Below are positions 27,978-36,227 of a stretch of DNA of 64,000 nt, one piece after another. The notes beneath the pieces were generated by a model. It was not told where the DNA came from. It made no database searches and saw only the letters and a list, made by a program, of their open reading frames with translations. Source of the stretch: an uncultured Poribacteria bacterium (GTDB lineage: Bacteria > Poribacteria > WGA-4E > WGA-3G); the NCBI GenBank assembly GCA_958296135.2, contig CATQHZ020000001.1, positions 2,880,001-2,944,000 of the forward strand, given 5' to 3'. Made by a program: the position numbers and the translations under genes. How positions within the stretch are numbered: position 1 is the first letter of the stretch; each line of letters starts with the position of its first letter.

Positions 27978-28076
27978 AGTTATGTGATGCTCCTGAGGCT
28001 GAGGGTTAGCAATTTTTGAGCCCGTGATTGCGGTTCGGACTGAAGCAACAAGACGGCTAAATAGTCTCGCGCTTAT

Positions 28077-28676
28077 CTATTTCTCATCCCGACCGGCTTT
28101 GCGTAAAGCCGAGGCGAGCTCTTCAAGTTGACGCGCAACCTCTCCGATATCAACGGCTATCCCTTGGAGGATAAGACGATAACAGAGGTCTTCCCAATTT
28201 TGGTACTGCTTCCACGCGAATTTACAGATTGAGAGCCGAATGTCAAAGCCAAGGGGAAGTAATAACGGCTGGATTCTATCAAAACGGACACCCGCTGAAA
28301 CGCTCAGAGCGTCTCGGATTGACTTCTCCTGATTCAGGACGAGATTGACAATATTTTGACATTCTTTTCCTGTCAGATCTTCCTCCTCTATAATCGCGAG
28401 GGCCAAAACCCACTGATCTTCTTCGCTTGTGAGTCTGGAGATTTGATAGCCTTGCTCCACGCCAATTTGCCCCTCATCAATTTTCCACCGAATGCCTTCC
28501 GGAAGTTGAAAAAGGCGATGCCGCGTATTCCAGAACTTGGCTGACATCCCGAATTGCTGTGCGATGGTTACGTAGGAACCATAATCCCGGTATAAGACAT
28601 CTACAGCTTCCCCAATTTCAGAGTGCATTTTCCCTTCCGGGGCAGAGAGATGTTTTCGTGCAGATGCAGCATTCAT
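28077..28676 (-). CDS. ParB/Spo0J-like HTH protein lacking the N-terminal CTPase domain
   Basis: IAQQFGMS..RLFQLPEGIRWKIDEGQI..QISRL..EEDQWVLA aligns by eye with the Spo0J central domain; AGGAGG upstream; 2 nt after the upstream stop. Confidence 0.6.
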   Translation of the reverse strand: MNAASARKHLSAPEGKMHSEIGEAVDVLYRDYGSYVTIAQQFGMSAKFWNTRHRLFQLPEGIRWKIDEGQIGVEQGYQISRLTSEEDQWVLALAIIEEEDLTGKECQNIVNLVLNQEKSIRDALSVSAGVRFDRIQPLLLPLGFDIRLSICKFAWKQYQNWEDLCYRLILQGIAVDIGEVARQLEELASALRKAGRDEK

Positions 28677-28678
28677 TG

Positions 28679-29536
28679 CTACCTTGATTCCCTCCTGAGT
28701 GTTTCTGCCACCATGTGACCGATTATGGCCTGTTCGTCGTCTAGGCCTCTCTCTTCGCCCCATTGTAACAAGTCGTCATACAGTTCGGCAGGAATTGCGT
28801 ACTGGACAACGCGTCTGGAGTCTCCCCTCCTGCGCGTTACATTGGCATTCAGGGCGGCGATAGAGACACTATGCCCTAGTTGTTCTAGTGCCTTAACAGC
28901 ATGTTTCCGCGTGTCTCTATCAAGTCCAAGAATCCAGGATGCTCGCTCCCTCATGGAGTCTTGTGACTGGCTGACACGCGCTCCATCGTAAGTATTTCTC
29001 ACAATTTTGGCTGCAGTCTGTGAGGGAAGGATGCCTTTATCTACCATTTGCTTAAGGTCATCGGGCAATGCGGATAGGGCATAATACCTCATAACGGTTG
29101 GGACTGTGACACCAAGGTAGGCCGCGGCAAGTTCAAGTGCTTCCTGCGCCGTATACCCATCGCCGTTGTACCGCTTGTAAATCCGCTCTACCCAGTACGC
29201 CCGGTCGCTATAGGTCAAATCCCCGCGCACCTCGTTTTCAAGCCATGAACGTTGAATGGCTTGATCGTCGTTGAGGTCAATGACGAACGCGGGAATTTCT
29301 TCCAAGCCGAGCGATAAACACGCCTTTAACCTGCATTGCCCGGTGACATTCTGATAGTCGTACCGGGAATCGGAATCGGGGTGGGGCCGAACGATAATCG
29401 GTTGATCTGGCCAATAACCGTGTTGCCGGATAGAGGCTTTGACTTTCTCAACGTTCTCTTCCACACCTTGCCGACGCACGTTGATAGTGCTATTCGGATC
29501 AATGCGGCGGAGATCAAGTGTTTGGACTGTATTCAA
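28679..29536 (-). CDS. ParB N-terminal (ParB/Srx fold) domain protein with HTH and RHH-like C-terminus
   Basis: SIRQHG..QPIIVRP, VTGQCRLKA, SWLENEVRGDL; TTG start with AGGAGA RBS (ATG 29608 alternative). Confidence 0.75.
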   Translation of the reverse strand: MNTVQTLDLRRIDPNSTINVRRQGVEENVEKVKASIRQHGYWPDQPIIVRPHPDSDSRYDYQNVTGQCRLKACLSLGLEEIPAFVIDLNDDQAIQRSWLENEVRGDLTYSDRAYWVERIYKRYNGDGYTAQEALELAAAYLGVTVPTVMRYYALSALPDDLKQMVDKGILPSQTAAKIVRNTYDGARVSQSQDSMRERASWILGLDRDTRKHAVKALEQLGHSVSIAALNANVTRRRGDSRRVVQYAIPAELYDDLLQWGEERGLDDEQAIIGHMVAETLRRESR

Positions 29537-29841
29537 TTTTGTTCTCCTATTATGAGCGTAAGTAAGATGCTGCACCGTTTGCCTATGCGTCTGCAGGGAA
29601 TTCTCCATCGCGGAGATGTTTATCAAAGCGTTGAGGCGACATAGGCATATATTCGCATTTTTCAGTTTATTCGTCAAGAAAAATTTTCTGAACCCAGAGA
29701 CATTGGGTTTTTGATTCCCACATCGAGAATCCTCTACTATAGAACCTACATCCCGATCATCGTCGTAGAGCGAGATTGGCGGGTGCTGCTGCGTTTGAGA
29801 TTAGGCGATCTCAAACTACAGAAACAGAAGTTCATTGGGTA

Positions 29842-31068
29842 TTACTCCTCGTGTAAGAGGAGGTGCCCCAATTTCGTGCGCTTCGCCTGGAGATAGGCGC
29901 GGTTAAAGGGATTCGGGCTCGTCTGCAAGGGGACGCGCTCCACAATTTCTAACCCGTAGCCGCTCAACCCCTTTACTTTTTGTGGGTTGTTTGTTAACAA
30001 GCGCATTTTTTTCACGCCGAGTGCTGCAAGGATTTGCGCGCCGATGCCGTAATCGCGAAGATCTGGTGGGAAACCGAGGCGTTCGTTCGCCTCGACGGTA
30101 TCCAACCCTTCGTTATCTTGTAATTGATAGGCGCGGAGTTTCTCCTTGAGCCCCATGCCTCTTCCCTCTTGCCGCATATAGAGGAGGATGCCTCTGCCTT
30201 CTTTCCCAATCATCTCTAATGCCAGTTGGAGTTGTTCGCCGCAGTCGCATCGGAGTGAGCCGAACACGTCGCCGGTAAGGCATTGCGAATGCACGCGTAC
30301 TAACACTGGCGCGGCATCGGCAACGTCCCCTTTCGTCAGTGCGATGTGCGTCCTGGGCATATCCGTGCTACCTTCGGCGATGTCACTACTTTCGTAAGCG
30401 TGGAGTTTGAAGTGTCCGTGCGCCGTGGGGATGTCTGCCGTCGCGATGCGCTTGACAAGCGTCTCCGTGCGCAGCCGATACGCAATCAGATCGGCGATAG
30501 TGATAATTTTCAGTTGATGCTTTTCGGCGAACTGCATGAGTTCTGGGACGCGTGCCATGGAGCCGTCATCATTCAGCACTTCGCAGAGTACCCCTGCGGG
30601 ATAGAGCCCGGCGAGTTGGGCCAGATCGACGGTGGCTTCGGTATGTCCGGCGCGTCGGAGAACGCCGCCCGGTTTCGCCTCCAATGGGAAGATGTGTCCG
30701 GGCCGCACAAAATCGGAGGGGACAGCCGTTTTCTCGACGAATTTTCGGATGGTATAGGCGCGCTCCTGCGCGGAAATGCCGGTTGACACTTCCTTCGCGT
30801 CAATCGTCACCGTAAACGCCGTTTGCATCTGAGCGGTATTGTCCATCACCATTGGTTGGAGTTCCAACTCAGCGAGGCGTTCGGAACACGTTGGGAGGCA
30901 GATGAGCCCTCGGCCGTATGTCGCCATGAAGTTGATGGATTCGGCGGAGACTTTTTCGGCGGCCATCACCAGGTCGCCTTCGTTCTCCCGGTCTGGTTCA
31001 TCAACGACGATAATGATTTCGCCATTCTCGATGGCAACTATGGCTTCTGGAATTGTGCTAAATGTCAT
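29842..31068 (-). CDS. ribBA: Bifunctional DHBP synthase / GTP cyclohydrolase II
   Basis: [49 protein letters not shown]. Confidence 0.97.
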
Positions 31069-31255
31069 TTTTTGTTATTCGCAATGCGTGCTGTTTTGCT
31101 GATGCGTTTGACTTGCCAGGGCGCGTCGACATTGTCGATGCTTGCATTTCTGCGCGTCTCATCGCGTTTGATGAGAGCGGTTTCTGATGAATTCCACAGC
31201 CGGGTGTGGATTGCTGGACGTTTCTCTGCGCGCTTGCACCGCTCTGTGGGACCTA

Positions 31256-31670
31256 TGCGTTTCTGCCTTAATCTGACACAATCTACCAGAGGCATCAGCT
31301 GCCGCACTTCCTGCTTCTGCGCTCACAGCCTCCGAGTCACACCGAGGTGTGCCTACAGCGAGGTCTTACACGAACTCCACAGGCGTTTTACGCGTCACCA
31401 GAGCTGTGTGCCGCGTGTCGTAACTTTGGTTTCGTTGTCGTCTCAGGTATTGCAGCGAGTCATTGGTCTCGCATCGGTCTTACCGTCACCTCCACCGTCA
31501 GTGGTGCCGCCGCACCGCCAACTTTTAGTCCGCTTTTCACGGGGGGTAGGATTGCCTAACGTGCCTCTTGATACCGTGCAGGAGGAACGCTCATCACGCT
31601 CCGTCACCATCCTCTCTAACCTGTGAGATAAGACGACATTACGTCAGATTCTGTTAGATTTTTCGCCACT
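31256..31670 (-). mobile_element. Putative non-autonomous IS607/IS605-derived element with TnpB omegaRNA-like 3' region
   Basis: Minus strand: AAACGCCTGTGGAG, TGTAAGACC, GAAGCAGGAA in the usual order; 10-bp-period AATCT(A/G)AC repeats in inverted orientation at both ends; no transposase or TnpB ORF. Confidence 0.6.
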
Positions 31671-31684
31671 GCACCGAGCCCTTT

Positions 31685-32332
31685 TTAATGAAATCCATGC
31701 CGTGCTAAGAATGCCATGTCAATAGCGGCGGTCTCAGTGGCCGTGTGTTTTAAGAGCAGTGTCTCAACATAACGGGCAAGGAGATCTACCTCAATATTGA
31801 CATGTGCACCGTTCCGTTTTGTTCCGAGTGTCGTCACGTGCTTTGTATGCGGAATCAGTGCGACTTCAACCGCATCGGCGGCGACGTTAGAGATGGTTAA
31901 GCTGACACCGTCTATAGCGATGGAGCCTTTGTATGCAACGTAGCGTATCGCCTTTTCGGAGAGGCTTACCTGCATGCAGGAGGAGGTGCCTTCATCCTTC
32001 CATCCGCTAATAGTGGCTACTTCGTCGACGTGTCCAAGGACGAGGTGGCCGCCCAGCCGGTCTTTCAAACGGAGTGCGCGTTCTAAGTTAACCTGTTCGC
32101 CAGTTTTCCGTTCTGCCAATGTGGTGCGTCGCAAGGTTTCCGCGGAGACATCGGCGAGGAAGGTTGCTGACGTGCATGCACTCACGGTGAGGCAGGCTCC
32201 ATCAACGGCGATGCTGTCGCCTACCTTTGCATCGGTGAGCACGGTGTGTGCCTGAATTTCAAGCGTCGCGCCTTGCGAGTCGCGCTGAAGGCTCACGACG
32301 GTTCCCAGTTCCTCAACGATTCCGGTAAACAT
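31685..32332 (-). CDS. ribE: Riboflavin synthase (alpha chain; ribC in E. coli nomenclature)
   Basis: MFTGIVEE, GDSIAVDGACLT, NLERAL..GGHLVLGHVD, KGSIAIDGVSLT. Confidence 0.97.
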   Translation of the reverse strand: MFTGIVEELGTVVSLQRDSQGATLEIQAHTVLTDAKVGDSIAVDGACLTVSACTSATFLADVSAETLRRTTLAERKTGEQVNLERALRLKDRLGGHLVLGHVDEVATISGWKDEGTSSCMQVSLSEKAIRYVAYKGSIAIDGVSLTISNVAADAVEVALIPHTKHVTTLGTKRNGAHVNIEVDLLARYVETLLLKHTATETAAIDMAFLARHGFH

Positions 32333-32363
32333 TTTCTGTTGTTCCTAGCGGTTGTAAATTGCC

Positions 32364-32392
32364 GGTAGGCGCGGTTTGAAACCGCGCCTACG
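32364..32392. repeat. Palindromic REP doublet GTAGGCGCGGTTTGAAACCGCGCCTAC (relatives near 5232, 13895, 48360)
   Basis: Palindrome with GTAG/CTAC ends between ribD and ribE. Confidence 0.75.
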
Positions 32393-32429
32393 GGGTGTCT
32401 CTTGCGAGTTGAACGAACCCTTGGCGGCC

Positions 32430-33536
32430 CTACAGATAGCCTTGTATGAGGATGTCGCCGTCGCCGCCTTGCACGGGCATCACTGTCACCTTCTCCAACT
32501 TTGGTGCGTCTGCCAAAGCGAGAATTCCTTGGCCTCCAAGCGGTCCCGGGGCATCTGCGCCGCCAATAAGTTTCGGTGCGACAAAACAGATGACTTTATG
32601 GACAACGCCGGTGGCGATAGCGGTGGCGTTGACTTCCGCGCCCCCTTCTATCAAGACGTTCGTTATTTCGCGCGCGCCTAACGTTTCCATGAGCGCGCTG
32701 AAACCGACGCGTCCGTGCTTTGCTGGTACAACGATGACATCGGCCCCCGCCTTTTTCAGCGAGGCGATGTTGTGTGCCGGTGCCTGAGGTGTCACGGCGA
32801 TGATGAGTCCTGCGGTGCTCTCGGCGTTGAAGACGTTTGCATCCGTTGGTGTGCGTCCGCGTGAATCCAGCACGATGCGCGTCGCATCTTTGCCCGGCCG
32901 ATGTGCGAGCCGCGTCGTTAACGCCGGATTGTCGCGGCGGACGGTGCCGCTTCCGACGAGGATTGCGTCCACTTCATCTCGAATCTCATGGACTTTTTGT
33001 CGCGAGGCCTCGGAGGTTATCCATTGCGATTCTCCGGTGGCAGTAGCGATTTTTCCATCAAGGCTCATCGCTGTCTTGAGAATGACAAAGGGCTGCCCCG
33101 TTTGCACATATTTTCGGTGCACCTCATTAAGTTGTGCTGCTTCTTCGGTACATATCCCGATGTTCACGGAGATGCCGGCTGCTTCCAACTGCCGAATGCC
33201 TTTGCCCGCGACTTTGGGGTTGGCATCCACTTCCGCGATGTAAACCTGCGCGATGCCTGCCTGAATGAGTGCATCGGTGCAGGGCGGCGTGCGTCCCCAA
33301 TGGCAACACGGTTCGAGGTTGACGTAGAGGGTGCCGTCTTTGGCGGCCGTTCCAGCTGCCTGCAGCGCGTGGATTTCGGCATGCGGCCCGCCTGCTTTCT
33401 GATGATACCCTTCGCCGACGATGTTCCCCGCTTTCACGATAACTGCGCCGACGAGGGGGTTCGGGCTCGTATGGCCCTTGCCCATTCTGGCTAATGTTAG
33501 CGCGCGCCGCATCAATGTTATGTGTGTCTCATCCAT
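32430..33536 (-). CDS. ribD: Bifunctional deaminase/reductase of riboflavin synthesis
   Basis: PNPLVGAV, HAE, LEPCCHWGRTPPC, SLDGKIA, IEGG. Confidence 0.97.
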   Translation of the reverse strand: MDETHITLMRRALTLARMGKGHTSPNPLVGAVIVKAGNIVGEGYHQKAGGPHAEIHALQAAGTAAKDGTLYVNLEPCCHWGRTPPCTDALIQAGIAQVYIAEVDANPKVAGKGIRQLEAAGISVNIGICTEEAAQLNEVHRKYVQTGQPFVILKTAMSLDGKIATATGESQWITSEASRQKVHEIRDEVDAILVGSGTVRRDNPALTTRLAHRPGKDATRIVLDSRGRTPTDANVFNAESTAGLIIAVTPQAPAHNIASLKKAGADVIVVPAKHGRVGFSALMETLGAREITNVLIEGGAEVNATAIATGVVHKVICFVAPKLIGGADAPGPLGGQGILALADAPKLEKVTVMPVQGGDGDILIQGYL

Positions 33537-33718
33537 CGTGGTTTGTCACTTATTATTGCTATATTTGGCGAGGGGAACCCTCGGCGATTCGCGCTCGCCG
33601 GGCCCGCGCCCTACGGCATAGAGAGACTGTTTTAAAATAGTATACCATATTTTAATTAAAAATGAAAATGTTTTTTTCTCAGGGATAGGGCCATTTCGTT
33701 TTCGACGGACACGGCATC

Positions 33719-34342
33719 CTAGTCTTTTAAGTTGTCTTCCCCCGCGCAGGCTTTGAGTCCCTCTATGAATACCTGAAAACTTCGCGAACGATTGCGGCTC
33801 GGCTCCATGTGCAGCGCAATGTTTTGTGCCACCTTTATCTTGCGTAACCACTTCGGGTAGTATCTTTTCAGCAGGCGTTCAAGGGCTTCACAGGTGCCGC
33901 CGGTGATTGCATCAGGATCCCGATATTTCGCCCGGTTTTGGAAAGTTTTTGAGACGTTAGGATAGGCTATCCTCAGTGCCTCAATGTCTCCAAAAAACCA
34001 TGCCTCTAACTCCTCGACCGCCAACCGATTGACGACGCGAAACTCGCCTTGGGAATTCGGATGGGATTTCGTCAAAAACCCTGCCTCGCGAGCAGCCTGT
34101 TCTAACCGCGCCTTCAGTACCCGGCAATCTTGCCTGTCTTCATCAATAAGCACAAATATTCGCCAGTCGGCAGGCAGCCATCGGCGGTAGCCCTTCAATC
34201 GCGACGGCAGTTTTTTTAACAGGTCTTGTTTGCCTTCAAAGACATGGAAGTGGAAACTGACATTGTCGGCAAGAATCTTTGGCAAGATAGCCTGCAGTGC
34301 CGCTTCGGCAGAGGGTTCTTCCAATAAGAATTCAATGTGCAT
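33719..34342 (-). CDS. DUF4276 family TOPRIM-like protein
   Basis: [39 protein letters not shown]; overlaps the ATPase end. Confidence 0.8.
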
Positions 34343-35555
34343 GCGTGCCTCCCTTGGGGCCGCCTGCATTTGTCAGCGGGTCGCCGATATCAAAGTAATT
34401 TTCCATCCAGAGCTGCCCCAACTTCGCACCGGTTTCCAGAAAATCCTTGATACCTAGCATATCCGCTGTCCGTTTGCAATTTGTAAACCCTTGTTTATCA
34501 CGATAAAGCACCCAGACCTCTTCGGCGCGGAGGCCGTTGATGAAATGAGGCGAATGCGTGGTAATCATCAGTTGAGTGAACGCTGATGCCTCGCGGCACT
34601 CATCTGTCAAACCGGCCAACAAGCGGGGATGTAGGTAATTTTCGGGTTCCTCAATACCTATTAATTCCGGCGGTTCTGCATCGTGTAACAACGTCAAGTA
34701 GGACAGCATCTTCAAGGTGCCATCGGAGGCGAACTTGGCTAAGATGGGTTGCTCAAACGGCACATCCTTAATCTGTAACAGGAGGCGGCCATCCTGCATC
34801 AGTTCTGCATCCACCCGTTCTAAGCGTGGCACCCGATCCTTCAAGGTTGAAAGAATACGCTTCAGCTGCTGCGGGTGCTGTTCTTTCAGATACTGGATGA
34901 CGTTCGGCAGATTGTCTCCCGTTTCCGAGAGCCGTTCTTGCGGGCCCGCTTCGGGCACCCCGCGCGTGGCATCGGCAGACAAGTAGGAGAGATGCCAGCC
35001 GGTAATAAAGCGGCGCAAGGCACTCACGCGAGGGTGCCGCGCCAGTTGTCCAAGTGCGCTGACGGCCAGCATTGATGCATCGTCAAGTTGTTCATCAATT
35101 CGCGTATCCTTCATATCGGGTGCTTCACCAGCGATGACCCGGCCTTCGCCTTGACGAAAATCGAAGAAGCGAAACGGTTGCCCCTTGCTCCCGCGCCGCC
35201 ATCGTAGGGATTCAGTCTCAACATGCACCCCTTTCGGGTTTTCGTTAATTGCTAAGCGGTAGGTGATGATGGGTGTCTTCGGTTTCTCGCGATATTTCAA
35301 TTCAAATTCTATCGCGCCGTCACTCCCGCGGGTTCGGAGTTCCTTAAAACGTCCTCTTTTGTCCCACGCCCGGCGCAAACCCACCGTGAAGCATTCGGAG
35401 AGAAACGCGAATACATCAAATAGGGTTGATTTCCCGCTGCCGTTCGGCCCTAGGAAGGCTGACATCGGTGTTATTTTTCGTAATTCGACATCCCGCAGCG
35501 CGCGATAGTTCTTCACGCGTAAGGATTCAATACGGGGGACAGTCTGTTTCGCCAT
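34332..35555 (-). CDS. ABC-type AAA_21 ATPase
   Basis: [33 protein letters not shown]. Confidence 0.92.
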
Positions 35556-35590
35556 CTCAATTGCCTCTATATGAACAACATTTATCTGAT

Positions 35591-35619
35591 ATGATACCCT
35601 ATTTCAAGCGGCTTGTCAA
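35591..35619 (-). promoter_or_regulatory. sigma70-type promoter of the ATPase-DUF4276 operon
   Basis: TTGACA-17 nt-TATCAT. Confidence 0.7.
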
Positions 35620-35732
35620 TCTTTTTAATTGGTTTAGTTAGCGGCATGGTTCCGGCTGCAGTGCATGGCGAGGCACAGGACCGCGCCCTACGGTAGAAGT
35701 GATGGACGCATGGTTCCGACTGCGGGCTGTCC

Positions 35733-36227
35733 TTACAAAGTTTCGTCAATAGCGCGTAAGTGTTTCAGAATCTCCGTTTGCTTTGCCAAATCAAACTGAT
35801 GCGAGCCGATGTACATATACCGAATAATCCCGCGTTTGTCAATGATAAACGTCGCAGGCCGCGCGATGTTGTAAGCTTCAAGGCTGAGCCAGTGGTAGAC
35901 TCCGTAACTCTTGATGACGCGCCGCTCCTTGTCCACGAGCAAAGGGTAGGTGATGCCGTTGCGTTCCGCGTAGCCGCGCAATTCACGGGGCCACTGGCCC
36001 GCAATGGCGAGAGGGGTGGCATCGTGTTGCGCGTATGCCTCAACTTGTTCTTGCACTGCCGCCAACTGGCGACGGCTATTCGGACACCATGTCCCCCGAA
36101 AAAATGTCAGCACGACGCGCTGCTCGCCGCGATAGGATTCCAGCGACACGGCGCGTCGTTCATGTGAGGGGAGTGTCCATAAAGGGGCGGTATCGCCGAT
36201 GTTGAGAAGTCCGTTTTTGCGTGGCAT
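35733..36227 (-). CDS. AhpC/TSA peroxiredoxin-like redoxin
   Basis: IGDTAP, FFRGTWCPNS, PATFIIDKRGIIRY. Confidence 0.85.
   Translation of the reverse strand: MPRKNGLLNIGDTAPLWTLPSHERRAVSLESYRGEQRVVLTFFRGTWCPNSRRQLAAVQEQVEAYAQHDATPLAIAGQWPRELRGYAERNGITYPLLVDKERRVIKSYGVYHWLSLEAYNIARPATFIIDKRGIIRYMYIGSHQFDLAKQTEILKHLRAIDETL

Follow-up and report, generated by a model that had tools for sequence, protein, structure and literature searches.

The spacer between ribE and ribBA in the 64,000-nucleotide window (the whole stretch of DNA that was analysed) harbors a protein-free element, MITE A, which to judge by its ends and relatives is very probably a gene-less derivative of the IS607 family. Between an IS607-type left end and a 3' part resembling the omegaRNA scaffolds of TnpB nucleases, it carries an additional RNA domain whose helices show compensatory changes across copies from two genomes. 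This pattern of conservation suggests that the domain is likely to act at the RNA level.

The element and its setting in the riboflavin operon

The genes ribD, ribE and ribBA all lie on the minus strand (Table 1), and their coordinates reproduce the 616-bp gap between ribE and ribBA on that strand described in an earlier, sequence-only reading of the window. Within this gap the element is placed 3 nt downstream of the ribE stop codon and 170 nt upstream of ribBA, in the same orientation as the latter. The earlier reading had assigned it the span 31256-31670; the element is real, but its true extent is slightly larger (31239-31681), the bounds being fixed by a second copy of 98% identity, an alignment of 15 copies and an assembly unitig of exactly 443 nt. 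No open reading frame is conserved between the copies of the element, and a 55-aa ATG frame at 31443-31610 is stopped in the copies from a related genus. Hence, the element can at most be a non-autonomous derivative.

The omegaRNA-type motifs reported for the minus strand are found where they had been placed, namely AAACGCCTGTGGAG at 31375-31388, TGTAAGACC at 31362-31370 and GAAGCAGGAA at 31308-31317. The same holds for the repeats AATCTAAC-AG-AATCTGAC at 31643-31660 and their inverted counterpart at 31270-31286. The consensus AATCTRAC occurs 4 times in the 64-kb window against a shuffle mean of 3.08, a total not above chance; three of the four occurrences lie inside the 443-bp element, where one end has two of them and the other end has one in inverted orientation.

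Two further gene pairs in the neighborhood are of note. Just upstream of ribD (33719-35555, minus strand), overlapping genes code for an AAA_21/AAA_15 ATPase (407 aa) and a DUF4276 protein (216 aa), a combination reminiscent of a defence system. Directly downstream of ribBA (28077-29677, minus strand), two overlapping ParB-like ORFs (one with ParB_N, the other with DUF7119 and a weak ParB HTH) occupy the position where ribH might be expected.

Table 1. Features of the ribE-ribBA region and of the element, in window coordinates
Feature	Position	Strand	Description
ribD	32430-33536	minus	
ribE	31685-32332	minus	Riboflavin synthase, two lumazine-binding domains; Pfam PF00677, E = 9.8e-47
ribBA	29842-31068	minus	DHBP synthase fused to GTP cyclohydrolase II; Pfam PF00926 + PF00925
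Whole non-autonomous element (MITE A), 443 bp	31239-31681	minus	Begins GGGCTCGG, finishes GAGCGG
Left junction	31679-31682	minus	AGGG, TAM-like; last two G are the presumed GG crossover core
Left end	31638-31681	minus	GGGCTCGGTGCAGTGGCGA, then AATCTAAC / AATCTGAC / AATGTCGTC with 10-bp period
Extra structured RNA domain, 201 nt	31437-31637	minus	RNAalifold and pair counts on 29 copies
Closing helix P-a	31630-31637 with 31437-31444	minus	
Hairpins P-b, P-c and P-f	within 31437-31637	minus	
Long-range helix P-d	31571-31575 with 31446-31450	minus	GGTAT with ATACC; covariation
Helix P-e		minus	G/C-rich; CCCCCCGT with ACGGTGGAGG; encloses hairpin P-e2
OmegaRNA-like scaffold, 178 nt	31239-31416	minus	Ends at the right boundary; holds AAACGCCTGTGGAG, TGTAAGACC, GAAGCAGGAA
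Hairpin S1	31390-31416	minus	First helix of the omegaRNA-like part; ACGCG.CAC ... GTG.CGCGT
Right end	31239-31307	minus	Inverted AATCT repeats at 31270-31286; terminal CATAGGTCCCACAGAGCGG
Predicted guide portion	31219-31238	minus	Flank 3' of the right end, into which the transcript would continue; predicted from the TnpB/omegaRNA model as given in the portions of the literature consulted

Copies, boundaries and empty sites

We compared the organism's own genome (G000, with main contig C1) with two genomes of the same genus (G001 and G002) and one of a related genus (G004). The ribE-ribBA spacer matches 45 places in G000 (43 in a separate BLAST search). Among these is a second A copy at C1:3280211-3280656, which is 98% identical over window positions 31239-31688, after which the similarity stops and the flanks are unrelated. 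An alignment of 15 copies likewise starts at GGG(C/T)TCGG and stops at CCCACAGAGCGG (..GCGG) with unrelated flanks. Among the DNA contig sets from one sample, a unitig of 443 nt corresponds exactly to 31239-31681; its depth of 194 compared with 122-126 for its flanks (about 1.6x) fits a two-copy repeat. A joint across the element, representing an empty site, is absent from the four DNA contig sets of this sample.

Contrary to what a single-copy sequence would have implied for the earlier reading, gene-less copies bearing the domain number nine in G000 (two of type A and seven on the backbone of a second subfamily, B), and G004 has dozens of copies at no fewer than 30 loci. The domain-bearing form is the commoner one among the loci fetched from G004, with 23 copies in two subfamilies versus 7 without the domain. 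These seven retain the same ends and omegaRNA core around a different middle of about 100 nt. In a crude longest-open-frame count, which is noisy and miscalls ribBA, the gene downstream of the copies points the same way 27 times and the opposite way 9 times; for the upstream gene the figures are 22 and 11.

Empty-site alleles, which the earlier reading had proposed to look for, exist in both congeners searched: ribE and ribBA are adjacent there, separated by 49 nt in G001 and by 64 nt in G002. Past the ribE stop codon, G002 reads CGG and then TGCAA; the five bases TGCAA also come after the terminal GG of the element in the window, and this empty site has a single GG; the G001 and G002 spacers are otherwise too diverged for a base-perfect comparison. 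The other part of the window spacer (31069-31238, 170 nt) is likewise missing in G001 and G002. It has several palindromes and shares stretches of sequence with C1:1350803-1350892, C1:2907133-2907173 and two sites in G002; possibly it represents a further small repeat. A separate observation on G000 concerns its contig C2 (143,886 bp), whose G+C content of 36.8% versus 54.4% for the main contig may mark it as a plasmid, a foreign replicon or contamination.

Parental TnpB and TnpA genes and the ends of the element

G000 shows 34 matches to the TnpB zinc-finger domain, which fall into five groups by their N-terminal sequence. Group 1 elements are about 1.4 kb long, code for TnpB only and finish ..CATAAGTTCTAGGGAGCGG; their proteins display OrfB_IS605, Cas12f1-like_TNB and HTH domains and match NCBIfam guided_TnpB. 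A group 3 TnpB (359 aa) aligns end to end with ISDra2 TnpB structures (E = 3.7e-48). Y1-transposases are represented in G000 by two weak matches only, and Resolvase by three matches, each adjoining a tnpB. G004 has 66 TnpB-domain and 12 Resolvase matches, mostly adjacent to each other. A serine-recombinase TnpA, with its MerR-like HTH and Resolvase domain, is not encoded by the element itself.

The tnpA/tnpB-bearing relatives that the earlier reading had anticipated are present in G000, both as TnpB-only elements and as a tnpA+tnpB element with related ends. TnpB-only elements of groups 1 and 2 have left ends that agree base for base with the first 20 nt of the element. In the tnpA+tnpB element at C1:3725815-3727840 the left end reads GGGCTCGTTGCAG.. 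(with GGGCTCGTTGCAGGTCGAAG and two AATCTG) and the right end ..CATAGGTTATGTAGTGCGG, as compared with GGGCTCGGTGCAG.. and ..CATAGGTCCCACAGAGCGG in the window, and by this alignment the two clearly appear to share one end family. The end pattern CATARGT..GWGCGG also recurs in the group 1 elements and in the tnpA+tnpB element. GG is found at both junctions with unrelated flanks, and the unitig ends agree with this placement. Of the 31 elements with both ends located, 15 have A as the base 5' of GG(G), 9 have G and 7 have T; C does not occur. The GG junctions, the subterminal AATCT repeats and the likeness of the ends to those of a serine-recombinase-bearing element uphold the IS607 assignment made from the window sequence. 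The left-end repeats are the presumed binding sites for the serine-recombinase TnpA, by analogy to the family.

These features agree with what is recorded for IS607 elements in the sections of the literature we consulted. There, IS607 is described as inserting at GG-containing targets (PMC4227781). The serine recombinase of CboIStron is reported to require a strict GG core and to prefer TGGG, which is also the TnpB TAM; its right end is given as TCGG, and 40 bp of left end with 60 bp of right end as enough for excision (bioRxiv 10.1101/2023.11.20.567912, in the portions available). In one G004 copy, a joint that keeps GGG gives the upstream gene back a stop codon immediately behind its last codon, which fits an NGGG-type target.

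The tnpA at C1:3725930-3726602 is interrupted by an in-frame TGA behind codon 30, in the stretch that separates the HTH from the Resolvase domain, and may be a pseudogene or read through. As this is the sole tnpA in G000 beside A-type ends, the A copies may be immobile now. The group 5 elements have intact serine recombinases, and in G004 there are tnpA genes beside ends of the A type.

Subfamily B is represented on C1 by copies at about 825k, 944k, 1558k, 2122k, 2279k, 3031k and 3579k. Together with group 3 TnpB elements (e.g. L010:412-1641), these are sense-oriented and lie just upstream of start codons: a long ORF begins 7-12 nt past the right end in 5 of the 7 B copies, and an ATG is found 5-12 nt past it in 6 of 8 group 3 elements. 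The left junction in both is Shine-Dalgarno-like (A|AGGAGGAG..), and the right end finishes GGGGAACAG or AGGGAACAG. From these sequences, it looks as if the B and group 3 elements target ribosome-binding sites and supply a substitute. A different peculiarity is seen in the domain-less relatives from G004 (L080-L086), which have two copies of ATGTGGTATAATCT in the left end that are missing from domain-bearing copies. The presumed recombinase-binding repeat in these left ends would thus double as an extended -10-like promoter box.

The omegaRNA-like 3' part

The likeness to TnpB 3' ends that had been proposed from the order of the motifs is confirmed by alignment. The segment 31308-31391 is 79% identical to sequence within or after the 3' end of group 1 tnpB and 90% identical in the case of two group 3 genes, the best group 3 matches being C1:2951993 and C1:4516131. 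For the 109-nt core, which extends from hairpin S1 to GAAGCAGGAA, the best local alignments comprise 84/93 identities with group 3, 75/88 with group 1 and 76/98 with group 2. For the final 69 nt of the scaffold, no TnpB group gives a good match. Hairpin S1 shows changes on both sides in 4 of its 8 pairs, with 98.1% of cells paired; the consensus fold of the scaffold is predicted by RNAalifold, and the pair counting covers S1 only. On the strength of this homology, the 3' part is likely to be a real omegaRNA scaffold.

The scaffold stops at the element boundary, and hence the guide would be provided by the flank immediately beyond it. The two A copies differ in their flanks at this predicted guide position. 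A gene-less carrier of an omegaRNA is not new in kind, given the precedent of the PATEs, which often encode omegaRNAs needing use in trans (Meers et al. preprint, in the Discussion, the part available to us).

Structure of the extra RNA domain

The 201-nt domain folds into eight predicted helices, obtained from RNAalifold plus refinement on 29 aligned copies. Standard pairs occupy 95.1% of the pair cells, and 14 of the 54 pairs show a compensatory change, a count reached in 0 of 500 shuffles and compared with 0-4 in slid controls; these counts rest on few lineages (two genomes and about four subfamilies), and the sequences that served to derive the structure were also those on which it was tested. 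The clearest case is P-d, which reads GGUAU/AUACC in the window, GAUGC/GCAUC in G004 and GAUAC/GUAUC in subfamily B. The helices proposed from the single sequence therefore do covary, the outcome opposite to the one named at the outset as speaking against the element. Several of the individual pairings are also kept across copies, namely GTCGTCT/AGACGAC, GGAGCG/CGTTCC, GGTGC/GCACC and GCGAG/CTCGC. Two others fall away: the CAGGT/ACCTG part of the long-range pairing is unsupported, with ATACC pairing with GGTAT instead, and the CCAC/GTGG hairpin is not conserved across copies.

Folded singly, the window sequence is no more stable than its shuffles (z = -0.09). The support for the structure hence comes from the comparison of copies rather than from energy. 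Three of the 29 aligned copies are without two inner hairpins and many carry nested insertions, which indicates that parts of the domain are dispensable. The nested insertions, which are small and palindromic, sit in hairpin loops, not in stems. Some unpaired stretches of the domain are invariant. Two tertiary contacts noticed by eye were dropped, as variation is too low to test them: a pseudoknot linking the domain's CUGCAG-like junction to the invariant CCUGUGG in the omegaRNA part, and a resemblance to the 11-nt tetraloop receptor.

Tiny nested elements (about 90 bp and longer) with terminal inverted repeats CCGATTTTTGCG...CGCAAAAATCGG lie in loops of other elements, including B copies (L005-L009) and 3 of 9 full-length group 1 elements (among them L014 and L016). 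In G004 (loci L058-L079), REP-like 36-nt palindromes (GGTATTTACCC..GGG..ATACC) are repeatedly found in hairpin loops of both the domain and the right end.

Distribution of the domain

The domain is confined to gene-less copies, where it always lies directly 5' of the omegaRNA part; it is absent from all 34 tnpB loci of G000. Its sequence is 73-80% identical between A and the seven gene-less copies of subfamily B, and the subfamilies as a whole differ by 20-35%. The left end of subfamily B resembles group 3/5 elements and its right end group 3, whereas A is of the group 1/2 type. Thus, the same combination of domain and omegaRNA core is found on two IS607 backbones with different ends.

A covariance model of the domain (R1) retrieves the 9 copies already known in G000, with no others there, and at least 15 copies in G004, all in gene-less elements. 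In the 149 other genomes of the phylum (151 in total) it finds nothing convincing, a single 20.5-bit match being read as chance. A phylum-wide BLAST search places the domain in 2 of 176 genomes, again G000 and G004, with two further matches (E about 0.007-0.008) read as chance; over both searches, such weak single matches come from three other genomes. Scanning of the genome contigs with a pattern returned 42 stretches, one of them real and at the locus of an already known copy; pattern scans gave one chance match inside a coding region in metagenomes and none in viral contigs.

Known RNA families account for none of this, whether Rfam is applied with its gathering thresholds or by E-value. 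An Rfam search of window positions 28000-36000 with E up to 1 has no match to the element, and one of 31200-31720 with E up to 10 has only an 8-bit RNase P fragment, which we take as chance. Five other copy loci give no match with E up to 5, and ARAGORN recognises no tRNA-like gene. The group I intron model RF00028, run over the whole genome, matches at no copy and has one match of 11.6 bits elsewhere. Other chance matches in Rfam were V_AS9 inside ribBA and a palindrome resembling a miRNA family.

A model for the element and its alternatives

We propose that the element entered the operon at a GG immediately behind the ribE stop codon, pointing in the direction of the rib genes, and that a serine recombinase encoded elsewhere would move it by means of its AATCT repeats and GG core. 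Neither a sigma-70-like promoter nor a terminator was recognised on its strand, and hence its transcription would come from read-through of the host operon. The 3' part could then mature to an omegaRNA with the adjacent flank as its guide and load onto one of the TnpB nucleases that other loci of the genome encode. Cutting of the empty site by this complex after excision would restore the copy. The domain may fold compactly, shielding the untranslated insert and keeping the omegaRNA insulated against the host mRNA context, and it perhaps sets the 5' end of the omegaRNA. Thereby, a gene-less copy could still yield a usable guide RNA with little harm to the operon. Taken as a whole we regard this explanation as moderately probable. 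The specific role given to the domain, that of a shielding and insulating cis-acting RNA module in place of the tnpB frame, is put forward tentatively and is the more doubtful part of it.

A skeptical reading is that the domain is a neutral passenger, a relic of ancestral internal sequence spread by recent amplification. Its occurrence in 2 of 176 genomes of the phylum by BLAST and 2 of 151 by covariance model, its unremarkable thermodynamic stability, the deletions and nested insertions that it tolerates and the existence of domain-less relatives would all accord with this. We consider it unlikely, given that subfamilies 20-35% divergent still have 95.1% of cells paired with 14 of 54 pairs changed on both sides, that the same module is kept on two backbones with different ends, and that nested insertions fall in hairpin loops rather than stems. 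Alternatively, the domain could be a new self-splicing or self-cleaving RNA playing the part of the IStron group I intron, which would remove the element from transcripts or free the omegaRNA. The layout of left end, structured RNA and omegaRNA at the right end is that of the IS607 IStrons, and ORF-less IStron variants of 482 nt are on record, both by the portions of the IStron literature consulted; the copies also lie sense-oriented within operons and 5' leaders, and the invariant unpaired stretches would suit a ribozyme. This is distinctly unlikely in view of several observations. The element matches no group I intron, group II intron or self-cleaving ribozyme family in Rfam, and the sole genome-wide RF00028 match is the low-scoring one outside the copies. 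Group I 5' splice sites have a conserved U, whereas the left junction is preceded by A in 15, by G in 9 and by T in 7 of the 31 elements. Removal of the element opens a frame of at least 80 codons on both sides in 0 of 31 copies; among four borderline in-gene cases inspected by eye, one (L062, the best candidate) lies at the last codon of its gene and one upstream of a gene start. With the copies being intergenic, splicing is not needed to explain why the insertions are tolerated, and IStron-like splicing is unsupported. The broader proposition, by which the domain would belong to a new RNA class with a catalytic or processing function and would be a counterpart to the IStron ribozyme outside group I, coupled twice to an omegaRNA on gene-less IS607 backbones, is in our estimate a long shot of much the same order.

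That the domain is always joined directly to the omegaRNA core and co-varies with it between subfamilies could instead indicate a single long guide RNA, in which the domain adds a protein-binding part suited to one particular TnpB lineage. We deem this very unlikely: in G000, the domain precedes the omegaRNA at none of the 34 tnpB loci, the same omegaRNA core is present in elements that lack the domain, and the group 3 TnpB has an ordinary size (359 aa) and matches ISDra2 TnpB over its full length. An interpretation of the element as a host regulatory RNA of the riboflavin operon, e.g. a riboswitch-like ribBA leader, draws on its position inside that operon only and is extremely improbable. 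It is already contradicted by the distribution of the copies, as the element is absent from the same operon in both congeners and the domain recurs at 8 other, unrelated sites in G000; moreover, there is no match to the FMN riboswitch or any other Rfam family. Returning to the insulating-module explanation, if the fold helps to make or protect the guide RNA, it would show how parasites-of-parasites persist and would offer a small natural module for omegaRNA expression inside other transcripts. If it is catalytic, it would constitute a new ribozyme class.

Relationship to known systems

The element agrees with members of the IS607 family, such as the IS607 part of CboIStron, in having GG at both junctions without target duplication, and the pairing of TGGG with TCGG in CboIStron is paralleled here by NGGG at the left junction and GCGG at the right end, as far as the consulted sections of the CboIStron report describe these features. 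Further points in common are the short subterminal repeats, the omegaRNA at the right end and ends homologous to those of a tnpA+tnpB element. It departs from the family in lacking TnpA and TnpB and in having the 201-nt structured RNA domain where these genes would be. The TnpB omegaRNAs (e.g. that of ISDra2) and the RAGATH-18-derived reRNAs of IS607 TnpBs resemble its scaffold in lying at the 3' boundary of the element, with a guide that is predicted to come from the flank, and the scaffold has its homologues where tnpB ends, in sequence that overlaps or follows the 3' end of the gene. RAGATH-18 is a family in Rfam; the element matched no Rfam family.

IStrons, in which a group I intron is fused to an IS605/IS607 element, have the same order of left end, structured RNA and omegaRNA/right end, and like them the element is sense-oriented in transcribed regions. 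Its 443 nt are similar in size to the 482 nt given for the ORF-less BcISt1 variant in the literature sections consulted. In contrast to IStrons, the structured part of the element is not a group I intron by Rfam, it has no conserved 5' exon base, and its copies are intergenic.

The element is short (443 bp), non-coding and multi-copy and has the ends of an autonomous family, the properties by which MITE- or PATE-like elements are recognised. PATEs, which are gene-less derivatives of IS200/IS605, resemble it in being protein-free and multi-copy, in the retention of the ends and omegaRNA and, by analogy, in the presumed dependence on TnpA and TnpB in trans (Meers et al. preprint, in the portion available). 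They differ in that the backbone of the element is of the IS607 type (double-stranded DNA, serine recombinase, GG core) rather than Y1/hairpin, and in that it adds an RNA module. A literature search, with supplements outside its reach, yielded no described IS607-derived gene-less element with an added non-intron RNA domain. Gene-less omegaRNA carriers, in the form of PATEs, and ORF-less IStrons are already published, and what is new here is the extra RNA module. Beside these two, it presents a third arrangement, in which an omegaRNA is joined to a conserved, covarying RNA fold that is not a group I intron.
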